A DNA stretch of 64,000 nucleotides from NCBI GenBank assembly GCA_963816715.1, contig CAWFMJ010000015.1:290108-354107 (forward strand). Reading direction: 5' to 3'. A program made the translations under genes and the position numbers. Under the pieces are notes generated by a model. It was not told the origin of the DNA. It saw only the letters and a list, made by a program, of their open reading frames with translations, and searched no databases. Numbering within the stretch: the first letter of the stretch is position 1; each line of letters begins with the position of its first letter. Below, in pieces: positions 1 through 14,516 of the stretch. This DNA is from an uncultured delta proteobacterium. Lineage in GTDB: Bacteria > Desulfobacterota > Syntrophorhabdia > Syntrophorhabdales > WCHB1-27.

Positions 1-3000
1 GCACAGTCCACGGCGGGCAGCGGCGGCCTCATCGCCGCCTCGGGCGCCGCTTCGAGCGTCGAAGACACGAGCACGACGCAAGCATACATCGAAAACGCGA
101 CGTCGGCTGCCAACAAATCGACCTTCGATACGGCCTCGCTCACGGTGTCGGCAAGCCATACGGCGCAGTTTGACAGCCAGGCGAATTCCACGGAGGCCTC
201 TTTGGTGGGCGGCAGCGGAGCCTCCGGCACGAACACCATCGACACGACCGTCGACGCTTTCATCGGCGACTACACGAACGTCGCGACGGACAACCTCAAC
301 GTCACGGCGACAAGCACCACCCTCAAGAATATGTCCATGCCCAACGCGTGGAGCACCTGGGACATCCAGGCCGGCTCCGGCGGCGCCATCGCGGGCAGCG
401 CGGCCCAGAGCATAACGAACATCAGCAATGACACCGAGGCCACCATCGGGGACTCCGTGACCATCGACGTGGTGGGGAGCCTCTCCGACCCCGGCGCCTT
501 TGTCGTGAGCGCTTACAACGACGTCGAGGCCTCCGATTGGGTCGATCTCGACGCAGGCGGAGCGATCGCCTATGCCGGCGCAACGAGCGAGATACTGGTC
601 GACAACAACAATCCCAACAATTTGCCGACCGCCCTGGCGAGCCTCGGCAACAACGACGTCATCTCCACGGTAGGAGACCTCGACCTGGAAGCGTACACGA
701 AGGGAATACTCGACGTGGAGCCGAAGGCGCATACCTACGGTCTGGCCGCCGCGGCATCGATCGACGCCGAAGCCCTCATGCACGAGAACGACGCGGTCAA
801 TGTCGGGACCGGGACCAATGTCCTGGCTATGGGCAACCTGAATCTCCTGGCAGGCGCGAACCACACCGGCACGGAGAACTACTTCAATATAACGTCCCAC
901 GGCGACGAATTGAACGCCTCGGCCATCCCCATCAACGAGCTGCAGTCGCACGGCGAGGTGGTCCAGAACAACACCGTTTACATCGGCGCGGGCAGCGATC
1001 TCCAGACCGCGCAGGACGCCAACCTCACCGCCGAGACGATGGGAACCGACGAAGTGACCGCGTACGGCGAGGGCAAGGACTGGATGAGCGATCTTGCCGC
1101 CGACATTAACAGCCTCGGCACGCCTATCCCTGCCACCATGCAGGGCGGCACGCAAACCGTCACCACCACCGGCACGGTGACGGTGAACGGCACGGTTGAA
1201 GTGGGCGTCGATGGGCAGAAAACACTCGTCATTAATCAAGACGGCACGATTGCCCAACAGACCGGCGGCATCACGTTTACGACAAGCACGGAGTCGGAAG
1301 CGAACGACCTGATGATGGAATATGAGTACTGGACTTCCATGGTGACCGTCTACGGCGCCGGTTCTACTGCCGGCCAGGCCTACCAGCAGCAGGCGGACTA
1401 CGTCGCCGCGGAGATGACGGCCCTCGGCCTCAGCGCCACAAACGGCTCGACCACCGCCTACCTCACGTCCTACGCCGTGCCTTATATCACGGTCGATGCC
1501 ATCGACGCTCAGGAAGGAACGATCAACGTCATCGGCACGTCCCTTGCGGTCAACGGGACCCTCGACGCCTCGGGCAACGTGTCGGTTGATATCGAGAACA
1601 ATAGCCCCGACTTTCTCCGGATCGAGGGAATCGACATATCCAGCAGCGCCGGCGGCCAAGTGCTTTTCAATTACAACGCCATCACGAGCCTTCAGGGCTT
1701 GACGAACGTCTCGGGGAGCGGCACGCTCAGCGTGGCGGGGAGCGCCGGCGCGACGACGCCCACCATTACGATCAAGAGCAACTTCGGCGCTTCCGACGAG
1801 ATCGGCAATTACGCCCATTGCCAGACACCGAATGTGGAACTCTCGGGCGACATCAGCAACATGCTCGGCTCGGTGACGATTTACTCGGCGGGAAGCGTCA
1901 TAGAGAATGCCAACACCGACGCAGGGACCATCTCCATCACCGCGGGCGGCAGCTACGTACAGAACTACAGCAATGCCCTGAGCAGCATCGGAGGAGGAGA
2001 CCCGGCAGCCCAGGCGGTGTGGACGCAGGTGCTCGAGGACGCCATAGCAGACTGGAATGGCAATTTCCTTTATGGCATGATCGGGGTGCTTTCGAGCTCG
2101 AATGACACCAACGCGCAGTTCCAGGCCGACCTCGCTGCCGCCCTCGCCGCCTCGGCGCCGACCTCGAGCAGCATCGTCGCGGGCGAGAATGTTTTCATCG
2201 CCGCGGAGTACCTCAACATCGATGGCACCGTGCAGAGCGGCCAGCCGCAGCAGACGGTGACGATCCTCAACAACGCGGCGACCCAAACCTACATCAGCAA
2301 CGCGAATAGTGTGTATGCGGCAGAACAGGCGGGCTCGACCTCATATGCCAACCGTCTGATAAATCAGGATGGCCTCACGACGAGCGACGGCATACACTTC
2401 AAGCTCGCGACGCAGTCGGGCGACACCATAACCGCTTACTACAACGCCCAGACGCAGCAGATCGACCTGGCGCCCGTGACCGTTCAGGGCGGCTACATGC
2501 AGCTCTACGGAGACATTGCCAGCACCGGCAACGGCCAGCTCAACGTCCTCGACGGCTACGGCACGGTGAGTATCACGAACGACACTTCCTATGCGCTGGT
2601 TACCAACACGATCGAGACGGGGCAGGGCGCGGCCGGGAAGCTCATCATCACGGATACGGCCTACACAGCCGACGTAAACGGCCAGGACCTGCCGCTCACC
2701 ACGGAGTATACCAGGGTGAACGGAGAAGTCACGACCGAAACCTACTACCTCTCTTCAACGGGCGCGAAGCTCGACGATACAACCGTTTCCTCGGGAAGCG
2801 TCGGGAGGACGGCGGTCTACACGCCGCTTTCCGGCCAGCGGTACTACTGGACCGAGGGCGAAGATTTCATGACCACCACGACCGACACGTACAGCGCCTC
2901 GGCGTGGCTCGGCATCAGCGCGTTCTACTCGCCGTCGAATATCGTCAGCTCCGATACCGTCGTGACGAAGGGCCTGCACCTTGAATCGGGCGCCTACATC

Positions 3001-13700: not shown

Positions 13701-14516
13701 GGAAACGACTTCCTGAGCGGCGGCGGCGGAAGAGATATCATGATTGGCGGCATCGGCAAGACCTCTTTCGTGGGGAGCTTTACCACCGACATCATGATCG
13801 GCCGGTTCGCCTACATCGTCGAGGTAGGCGGCAGGGTAAAAGAGGTTGACTGCTTCTGGTTCGGCGACGACCCTCTGGCAAACCCGCTTTCTTCGCTCTA
13901 CAGCACAGAAGCGGCCGGATCGGGCGCGGTGGCCGTGAGACCGATCACACCGCCGGCTGCCTGGGGAACGGGACTCGTCGGAGTCGAGATCGAAGTGGGC
14001 GGCGCTTCCGGCCTCCTGGCGCTGAACTCCACCGCTCTAGACCTGCAGGCGCAGCAGCAGGAACAGTCGAGCCACCCGGGTTCCTACATGGTTCAAAACA
14101 CTCCTCCTGCCAATGAACCCGAGTCTCAGCCGGAACAGCAGGCGCCGGGGTCAGGGTCGGGACCTCAGGAACAACAAGAACAGCCGGGGGCGCCTGGTCA
14201 GGGGCAGCAATCGAACCAACCGCCGGCAGGAGACAACGACCAGAGCAATCCGCCTCCCGAGGGGCAGAACCGGCACAACCAGCAGATCAATGTCAAAGGG
14301 GCCCTTGCCAAGGGCAAGACGGATAAACTGCATCCGGCCCTCGAGGGTTTCGTTGCCTTCGGCGCGGCAGCCGCCGTGGGCGCCGGCAAGGACGTGCGTA
14401 TCGACCGGGAGGGGTTTAAGAGACTGAAGGAAGAGCAGAGAAGGCGCCGTTTTCTGCCGTGGTTCGGCGGCAAGGTGACCGATAAAAACCACGACCGGAT
14501 GAGCACGGTCAAATAA
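13125..14516 (+). CDS. C-terminal continuation of the giant RTX-like protein, read in the -1 frame (frame 3). It carries more RTX-like repeats, a Gln/Pro/Glu-rich low-complexity linker, and a C-terminal hydrophobic Ala/Gly stretch followed by a poly-Arg/Lys tail.
   Basis: Frame 3 is open upstream of the ATG at 13125 back to at least 13083. Its N-terminus 'IQMTDLQIAANNTITVGNGNNIIFGG' continues the preceding repeat unit exactly where frame 1 stops ('...GDDGQIQYFASGARAS'). Compare the earlier unit 'GDDGTVQYDSTGAVSSITTTDVTVGGNN'. The protein ends '...EGFVAFGAAAAVGAGKDVRIDREGFKRLKEEQRRRRFLPWFGGKVTDKNHDRMSTVK'. Confidence 0.75.
   Translation: MTDLQIAANNTITVGNGNNIIFGGSGKNTIVAGLAGTGSNIIFGSNGEVSYLSPNALDTAQTIDSGIGGDDVITAGNGSNYVFGGYGSDSISLGGVTSPNPSQSSASIVVAHNGLIDFDPATNLPKTVYSVDNATGGNATVHTAAGNNVIIGGAGNNWLYGGTGNDVIFGAGGRVDWIAGTEIIQSIDLREGGNDFLSGGGGRDIMIGGIGKTSFVGSFTTDIMIGRFAYIVEVGGRVKEVDCFWFGDDPLANPLSSLYSTEAAGSGAVAVRPITPPAAWGTGLVGVEIEVGGASGLLALNSTALDLQAQQQEQSSHPGSYMVQNTPPANEPESQPEQQAPGSGSGPQEQQEQPGAPGQGQQSNQPPAGDNDQSNPPPEGQNRHNQQINVKGALAKGKTDKLHPALEGFVAFGAAAAVGAGKDVRIDREGFKRLKEEQRRRRFLPWFGGKVTDKNHDRMSTVK

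Follow-up and report, generated by a model that had tools for sequence, protein, structure and literature searches.

The window analysed here is a stretch of 64,000 nucleotides (nt) from an uncultured delta proteobacterium of the Desulfobacterota (assembly GCA_963816715.1, contig CAWFMJ010000015.1, positions 290,108 to 354,107). Positions 1-14516 of the window cover approximately 4,838 codons at the 3' end of one giant gene which is split by a 1-nt frameshift. Five genes lie directly 3' of the giant gene on the same strand, with gaps of -4 to 130 nt. They encode a DUF3467 protein, a GAF-HlyD protein, a PqqD-like/M50-HlyD protein (M50-HlyD hereafter), a SecA-like ATPase and a small HlyD-type adaptor. 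This cassette recurs beside giant genes in other genomes, where it is linked to giants that carry the LEPR-XLL motif. With a probability of about 60%, the giant is an acidic, secreted, filamentous protein and the cargo of the five genes, which would form a conduit resembling a type I secretion system (T1SS) with a SecA-type motor in place of the ABC transporter. The giant protein itself is of known kinds, being an RTX, beta-helical and probably LEPR-XLL giant, and the cassette looks like a new variant of tripartite secretion. The value of the locus lies mainly in the conserved SecA-like/M50/HlyD cassette which accompanies the giants. Neither the cassette nor the frameshift was mentioned in the first-pass annotation, which was made from the letters of the window alone. 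The coordinates of all features are given in Table 1.

Frame 1 runs from base 1 to a TGA at 13126-13128 with no earlier stop in the window. The probability of a stop-free frame over these 4,375 codons was approximately 1e-56 at the local base composition. The product obtained by joining the two frames has 4,838 visible residues, a mass of 489 kDa and an isoelectric point (pI) of 4.05. It is composed of 13.5% Thr, 13.0% Gly, 10.3% Ala, 9.4% Ser and 8.4% Asn and contains five Cys in 4,838 residues, in agreement with the earlier description of a Thr/Gly/Asn-rich and nearly Cys-free protein. No membrane-spanning segment was predicted in the giant protein and no catalytic or toxin domain was detected across the visible 4,838 residues.

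The first-pass annotation had treated positions 1-14516 as one giant open reading frame (ORF). The gene is real and giant, but it is divided between two ORFs with a change from frame 1 to frame 3 near 13108-13125. The frame-1 product ends with '...GNGNNIIFGDDGQIQYFASGA' followed by 'RASFR' and the stop, and frame 3 carries on with '...PSLIQMTDLQIAANNTITVGNGNNIIFGG', which completes the 58-residue repeat unit begun in frame 1. If one base is restored near 13108-13120 the unit becomes whole; the repeat register is otherwise interrupted there. The joined copy (residues 4333-4390) had the highest score of all copies against a hidden Markov model (HMM) of the unit, at 83 bits. Four relatives (L002, L003, L004 and L006) have 'GDDGyIQfFSSGxxSLiEstD' in a single frame across the junction point. 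A single BLASTP alignment to L003 crosses the junction with 52-60% identity across it, and homologue P0002 covers 98% of a junction-spanning query.

The frameshift in the giant gene is most likely an indel error of long-read assembly, because other 1-nt indels were found in comparison with the Logan assembly of the same sample (ERR11523660) and because the giant gene of a close relative on contig_38984 is likewise broken into frames. The naming style of that contig is the same as in the assemblies of the other close relatives. The Logan contig carries the same giant-gene frameshift. Its alignment to the window (14,469 bases) shows no substitution and two further indels of 1 nt each. One of these is an extra C at window position 19284, which breaks the SecA-like gene and leaves 606 codons from 19281 in the window, compared to 662 codons from 19112 if repaired; the gene is intact in the Logan contig. 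The second is at 23737. These two differences point to indel errors in the window assembly. It is unlikely that the frameshift of the giant gene is genuine, which would make it a recently inactivated pseudogene or a source of two products, with the main product lacking the C-terminal domain and tail. The presence of the shift in both assemblies of the sample and the ATGA overlap, which supplies a formal start codon for ORF2, would fit such an event. This ATG falls in the middle of a repeat unit, however, both frames are otherwise open and conserved relative to L003, and the same assembly contains at least one other 1-nt error which breaks an essential-looking neighbouring gene.

The visible protein is built of several distinct tandem arrays, as had been noted from the sequence, and the modY, modA and 58-residue RTX super-repeats were located individually. 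Residues 1 to approximately 1,300 and approximately 1,950-2,350 are weakly repetitive and rich in Thr, Gly, Ala and Ser. The N-terminal part of the visible sequence was modelled as a shaft of stacked coils which superposes on solved right-handed parallel beta-helix proteins, matching the beta-helices of HxuA, HMW1 and EtpA; the best structural matches were TpsA proteins. The earlier suggestion of beta-helix-like sequence is upheld for this shaft (residues 1-633). For most of the protein it is presumptive, as approximately 3,900 residues in the first part gave no Pfam, NCBIfam or PDB sequence match. Profile searches with modA and modY against the PDB also gave no match, and an iterative HMM search seeded with one LktA-like unit added no copies. 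The NCBIfam search of the giant returned sub-threshold RTX-family matches and a weak LktA tandem-repeat match only. Copies 2 and 3 of modY are 99% identical at the DNA level (4592-5101). Nowhere else in the gene is an assembler as likely to collapse or expand repeats as at these 261-nt units.

The RTX nonapeptide block, also noted earlier, is confirmed by tandem calcium-binding nonapeptides of the type GGxGxDxUx. Pfam HemolysinCabind (PF00353) matched ORF1 with an E-value of 1.5e-10 and ORF2 with 1.1e-18 (41.3 and 67.2 bits, respectively, against a gathering score of 23). After residue 3900 there are 25 GxGx[DN]x[hydrophobic] motifs, and 683 units matching the 58-residue RTX unit were found in homologues. 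The VCBS, Big and cadherin-like modules that the first-pass annotation proposed to search for were not detected in the Pfam search.

Residues 1-1200 were used as the query of a full HMMER search; 842 homologues were obtained, of which 267 had E <=1e-30. Many align over all 1,200 residues with 29-45% identity within proteins of 4,000-7,800 amino acids (aa), and the match usually starts at target residue 2,200-4,600. Since residue 1 of the window corresponds to about residue 2,200-4,600 of the long homologues, the full-length protein probably has approximately 7,000-9,500 aa, with thousands of N-terminal residues encoded upstream of the window. This agrees with the earlier statement that the coding sequence enters the window in frame and is truncated at its 5' end. 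A scan with window residues 1-400 of the collection of genome contigs found no relative. Among 91 long hits, 45 have an N-terminus of the two-partner secretion (TPS) type; in two of these the TPS domain (PF05860) was verified with Pfam. P0248 (7,819 aa, 43% identity) is the best of the long hits. It begins with '...LESLENRVLLS', which is LEPR-like, and has no TPS domain.

Among the cassette genes, DUF3467 has more than 5,000 homologues. Its AlphaFold2 (AF2) model has four strands and a long helix and gave no match when compared to solved structures. A role for DUF3467 as a SecB-like chaperone was considered, and its fold was found not to resemble SecB. Within the M50-HlyD family the catalytic motifs of the M50 domain (HExxH and NxxPxxxxD) do not vary. 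The family profile matched MacA in the PDB with an E-value of 1e-4 and PqqD (3g2b) with 0.068 at profile positions 22-106. A PqqD match was found in eight of 12 family members; the signal is weak and its placement consistent. The M50 part matched NCBIfam daptide_HExxH with an E-value of 7.6e-45, below the cut-off of that model, and also YydH/LiaK. The SecA-like protein matched only SecA_DEAD, SecA_PP_bind and P-loop_SecA, with all scores below the equivalog cut-offs. It has no match to the wing/scaffold domain and is shorter (662 aa) than the approximately 790-815 positions of the SecA models, and so differs from canonical SecA. A sigma-70-like promoter match (TTGACG, 18-nt spacer, TACAAT; 10/12) was present at 14518-14547, within the 130 nt that separate the giant gene from DUF3467. 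On the basis of this match the cassette might also be transcribed on its own. Scanning for terminators and promoters was otherwise uninformative.

The cassette was compared across genomes in a collection with one genome per species. Homologues of the M50-HlyD fusion exceed 5,300 in number, and at least 592 loci carry it in the species-representative genomes. These loci span the Desulfobacterota, Alpha-, Beta- and Gammaproteobacteria, Acidobacteriota, Nitrospira, Myxococcota and Omnitrophota. The closest relatives of M50-HlyD (76-79% identity) are in metagenome-assembled genomes named 'uncultured delta proteobacterium'. The order DUF3467, GAF-HlyD, M50-HlyD, SecA-like and HlyD was near-invariant among the 80 loci fetched. 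Of the 71 loci whose downstream sequence was long enough, 66 have a SecA-like gene. In 31 of the 50 loci with 4 kb or more of upstream sequence, the cassette is immediately preceded by an ORF of at least 1,000 aa. These upstream ORFs are Cys-poor and rich in Gly, Thr and Asp, and most run past the 10-kb flank. In approximately six of the remaining loci the giant ORF is directly downstream instead.

Complete plasmids gave the full sizes of giants beside the cassette, which ranged from 4,033 to 12,918 aa. The plasmid giants were those of Pseudosulfitobacter sp. DSM 107133 (12,918 aa), Mesorhizobium ciceri R30 (10,518 aa), Methylosinus sp. C49 (8,847 aa), Alisedimentitalea scapharcae (8,148 aa) and Thalassospira marina (4,033 aa). 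In four of the five, '(F/I)E.(L/I)EPR.LL(S/N)AD' comes after a basic stretch within the first approximately 60 residues. One of these four matches NCBIfam NF012209 (LEPR-XLL), and RefSeq names two of them after the LEPR-XLL domain. Seven more giants which start just downstream of a cassette have a LEPR-XLL motif within the first approximately 90 residues, beginning at ORF residues 19-81. Among them, the giant of an Omnitrophota locus (L021) carries the LEPR-XLL-type motif 'FEAMESRILLSAND'. The motif is thus found in 11 cassette-linked giants whose N-terminus is visible. TolC is encoded in two of the plasmid clusters (Methylosinus and Thalassospira). The annotated regions retrieved for the five plasmid clusters contain no ABC transporter.

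RefSeq names the SecA-like gene of the cassette inconsistently as 'prepilin peptidase', 'DEAD/DEAH box helicase' or 'SecA'. On three plasmids the gene at L083 23059-25083, L084 22213-24129 or L089 22174-24135 is called 'prepilin peptidase' (two plasmids) or 'DEAD/DEAH box helicase' (one). For the two 'prepilin peptidase' genes Pfam gave SecA_DEAD, SecA_PP_bind and P-loop_SecA. The M50-HlyD protein is labelled 'PqqD family protein', 'site-2 protease', 'biotin/lipoyl-binding protein' or 'hypothetical'. The inconsistent naming of the SecA-like gene hides the system from keyword searches. A literature search found no description of the cassette; most subscription journals were outside its coverage, so a prior description is possible.

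In the proposed mechanism an LEPR-XLL-type N-terminal leader, encoded upstream of the window, would be bound by the PqqD-like domain. The SecA-like ATPase would drive the unfolded chain across the inner membrane and the M50 protease would clip the leader. The three HlyD adaptors would connect to a TolC-type outer-membrane channel encoded elsewhere. Outside the cell, calcium would fold the RTX block and the beta-helix would form a long fibre for adhesion or contact. The GAF domain may gate export, DUF3467 may serve as a cytoplasmic cargo-binding factor, and the Q/P-rich linker and basic tail may be a last-in retention or recognition element. A tripartite conduit resembling a T1SS is proposed because of the adaptors and the TolC of relatives. 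Leader binding and clipping are proposed because of the PqqD-like domain and the similarity of the M50 part to leader proteases of modified-peptide pathways, in which PqqD-like domains are leader-peptide recognition elements. The cassette has a single conserved ATPase, a SecA paralogue which lacks the regions used by canonical SecA to dock onto SecY. The giant is likely to be an extracellular adhesin-like fibre, given the shaft shared with TpsA proteins, the RTX block, the acidic pI, the lack of a membrane segment and the adjacent envelope-spanning cassette. The surface adhesin of the first-pass annotation is retained as likely on these grounds, while its description as S-layer-like found no support.

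Several observations weigh against the cargo-and-conduit reading. The N-terminus of the giant lies outside the window, so its LEPR-type leader is postulated, and a TPS domain takes the place of such a leader in many proteins homologous to residues 1-1200. The Alisedimentitalea giant has no LEPR-XLL motif at its annotated start, and the C-terminal tails of cassette-linked giants are heterogeneous. The M50-HlyD protein of the window itself has no PqqD match at E <=0.05. No outer-membrane component was found in the window and no inner-membrane channel was identified for the proposed conduit. The Thalassospira marina pCSC3H3 cluster (L090, 5522-24487) has no adjacent SecA-like gene. The frameshift is common to both available assemblies and could be real. 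The role of the cassette in export is inferred. The L090 cluster holds the LEPR-XLL giant of 4,033 aa, DUF3467, two HlyD-type proteins, M50-HlyD and TolC; either its ATPase is encoded elsewhere or this variant works without a SecA-like gene.

Other readings of the giant were considered. As a classical RTX substrate of a T1SS, the giant would carry an uncleaved C-terminal signal for an ABC transporter that is encoded at another site and acts with HlyD and TolC. The cassette would then supply only adaptors or be unrelated. The RTX nonapeptides near the C-terminus, the acidic and Cys-poor composition and the HlyD-family proteins adjoining the giant are as expected of such a substrate, as is a conserved C-terminal tail common to about one third of the cassette-linked giants. 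This tail is strongly basic (pI 10.6), however, and is not universal among relatives, and the conserved ATPase beside the giants is SecA-like (66 of 71 loci). The dedicated system of the RTX family comprises an ABC transporter of the HlyB type, an adaptor and TolC; of these, the window has three HlyD-type adaptors. The ORFs scanned across its 64 kb include neither an ABC transporter nor TolC, although either may be encoded elsewhere in the genome, and the fetched regions of the five plasmid clusters likewise have no ABC transporter. The classical context implied by the first-pass annotation is therefore not borne out by the window, and export by this route is quite unlikely.

The giant could instead be the TpsA exoprotein of a two-partner (type Vb) system, with a TPS domain and a TpsB gene upstream of the window and an unrelated cassette. 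The TPS-type N-termini of the long homologues, the structural matches to TpsA proteins and the weak LktA-repeat match are in favour of this. Nevertheless, the closest full-length homologue (P0248) is LEPR-like and lacks a TPS domain, and no inspected C-terminus of a TPS-type homologue ends in a tail of the 'RRRRFLPWFGG' type seen in the window. In addition, the gene occupies the conserved site 5' of the cassette, and giants at this site carry LEPR-XLL when their N-terminus can be seen. No TpsB-like gene was found downstream of the giant. A two-partner system is considered improbable. Still less can be said for a self-assembling S-layer lattice protein of the RsaA type, which is very improbable. 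The RTX repeats and the acidic, Cys-poor composition would be compatible with one, and RsaA was among the Foldseek hits, but these hits were non-significant (E above 0.5, TM-score below 0.1). Known RTX S-layer proteins have approximately 1,000 aa; the giant has at least 4,838 aa, and its shaft is homologous to filamentous exoproteins. Its size and architecture are fibre-like. The preferred reading remains that of a filamentous cargo of the SecA-type conduit.

The giant was compared to known systems. LEPR-XLL giants (NF012209, 'LEPR-8K') were found at the corresponding site, next to the same set of cassette genes, on five plasmids and in seven genome loci. They share with the window protein the size class (4,033-12,918 aa), RTX or calcium-binding regions and Cys-poor repeats. 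The window shows this association of giant and cassette in the same gene order, by a standard which is our own and not a published one. The defining N-terminal motif, approximately 20-80 residues from the start, lies outside the view for the window protein, and internal modules and C-termini vary among members. A LEPR-XLL giant of approximately 8,000 aa with a C-terminal RTX region is mentioned in a Vibrio genome paper (PMC10868602).

The giant RTX adhesins LapA, SiiE and MpIBP are exported by type I secretion. They are likewise very large, acidic and built of repeats with a C-proximal RTX region, and HlyD adaptors, with TolC in some window relatives, are common to both. They differ in having an ABC transporter where the window has a truncated SecA-like ATPase and an M50-adaptor fusion, and one adaptor gene compared to three in the window. 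No Big or cadherin repeats were detected in the window protein. TpsA/FhaB exoproteins, including those that are LktA-like, resemble the giant in the shaft: residues 1-1200 are homologous throughout, at approximately 30% identity, to a C-proximal shaft in TPS-domain proteins. The window shows neither a TPS domain nor TpsB, and it contains the RTX block and the cassette. Modified-peptide leader machinery (daptide, YydH/LiaK) combines a PqqD-like element with an M50 protease, as does the M50-HlyD of the window. The precursor there is a short peptide, whereas the window has a neighbour of several thousand residues, a HlyD fusion and a SecA-like partner.

SecA_DEAD and preprotein-binding domains without wing or scaffold have been reported embedded in giants of Omnitrophota and Actinobacteriota (West-Roberts et al. 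2023, bioRxiv 10.1101/2023.11.21.568195). The same authors suggest that the embedded SecA domains export the Omnitrophota giants themselves, with no mention of HlyD or M50. A SecA motor lacking wing and scaffold is thereby tied to giant-protein export, as is proposed here, and one cassette locus (L021) is from Omnitrophota. The SecA domains of those giants are embedded, whereas the SecA-like protein of the window is a separate 662-aa gene product in a five-gene cassette with HlyD and M50.

It is possible, at somewhat less than even odds, that the cassette represents a previously undescribed and widespread class of giant-protein secretion. Such a class would be tripartite, TolC-coupled and driven by a wing-less SecA motor in place of an ABC transporter, with a LEPR-XLL leader read by the PqqD-like domain and cut by M50 and with ligand control through GAF. 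To our knowledge, the export of proteins of 5,000-13,000 residues is largely unexplained outside ABC-driven type I and two-partner systems. If the cassette is an exporter, it would explain the LEPR-XLL motif, which is annotated by NCBI and so far unexplained. It would also provide a link to the SecA-like domains embedded in Omnitrophota giants, and it would be directly testable in cultured strains which carry it.

Table 1. Features of the window, with coordinates in nt and residue numbers of the frame-joined giant protein
Feature	Coordinates	Strand	Details
Giant gene, main part (ORF1)	1-13128	+	Frame 1, 4,375 codons and TGA; 5' end missing, already in frame at base 1
Predicted right-handed parallel beta-helix shaft, TpsA/FhaB type	1-1899	+	aa 1-633; weak LktA-like tandem-repeat signal
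Four modY ('GQTYYVI') modules, ~82 aa	3919-5379	+	aa 1307-1386, 1531-1612, 1618-1699, 1716-1793; TRF, HMM iteration, alignment
modA array, seven modules of ~116 aa	7135-9564	+	aa 2379-3188; each ~five coils of 20-25 aa, GxGxD/N-T motifs
Two further modY modules	9616-10122	+	aa 3206-3288, 3304-3374; six modY in all
Three degenerate modA-like modules	10186-11154	+	aa 3396-3718
RTX block, 10-11 copies of 58-aa super-repeat	11830-13724	+	aa 3944-4575; three nonapeptides and 31-aa insert; spans frameshift
Frameshift zone	13105-13128	+	Change from frame 1 to 3 (context GGGCGCCCGAG); gene split by one missing base
ORF2, C-terminal part of giant	13125-14516	+	Frame 3, 463 codons (463 aa); ATGA overlap with ORF1
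Conserved C-terminal domain	13680-13904	+	aa 4561-4635; within ORF2
Q/P-rich linker	14037-14294	+	aa 4680-4765; within ORF2
Basic tail 'EGFvAFG...REGFKRLKEEQRRRRFLPWFGG'	14331-14513	+	pI 10.6; within ORF2
DUF3467 protein, 121 aa	14647-15012	+	Pfam PF11950, E 3.4e-22; first cassette gene
GAF-HlyD, 616 aa	15100-16950	+	Pfam GAF, HlyD_3, HlyD_D23; one predicted membrane segment (343-375), then HlyD-type periplasmic adaptor
PqqD-like/M50-HlyD, 717 aa	16947-19100	+	PqqD-like N-terminus, M50 intramembrane metalloprotease, HlyD adaptor; five to six predicted membrane segments
Truncated SecA-like ATPase, 662 aa	19112-21101	+	DEAD, preprotein-crosslinking and second nucleotide-binding domains; broken in window by extra C at 19284
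Small membrane-anchored HlyD/RND-type periplasmic adaptor, 247 aa	21115-21858	+	Last cassette gene
Deaminase with zinc ribbon	22233-23615		Low-GC island
ThiF/E1-like protein	24058-25482	-	Low-GC island
Prokaryotic E2-like protein	25469-26170	-	Low-GC island
IrrE/M78 peptidase	27053-27610		Low-GC island
IS4/DDE transposase	28010-29617	-	Low-GC island
SPFH/Band-7 protein, 683 aa	30990-33041	-	Low-GC island

The tails of the cassette-linked giants were compared to that of the window. By eye, approximately one third share the 'aGfxGW ... RR(F/Y)xRW' tail of the window and another group ends in '(I/V)(D/N)W(S/N/G)...'. Crude classing by regular expression placed nine tails in class 1 and 11 in class 2 and left 17 unclassified. 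The C-terminus of the 12,918-aa Pseudosulfitobacter giant (L086 510-2012, minus strand) contains 'HEFNHM', which is HExxH-like, after LamG-like sequence and ends in 'GLLKRLGSLFKK'; it differs in type from that of the window. The Pseudosulfitobacter plasmid also has a SapC-family gene between the M50-HlyD and SecA-like genes (L083 22245-23066). A SapC protein has been invoked beside giant proteins of Chlorochromatium (bioRxiv 10.64898/2026.03.19.712371).

Right after the cassette of the window, the region 22000-33100 has a lower GC content (47-55%, compared to approximately 61%). From its gene content (Table 1) it looks like a mobile or defence island.

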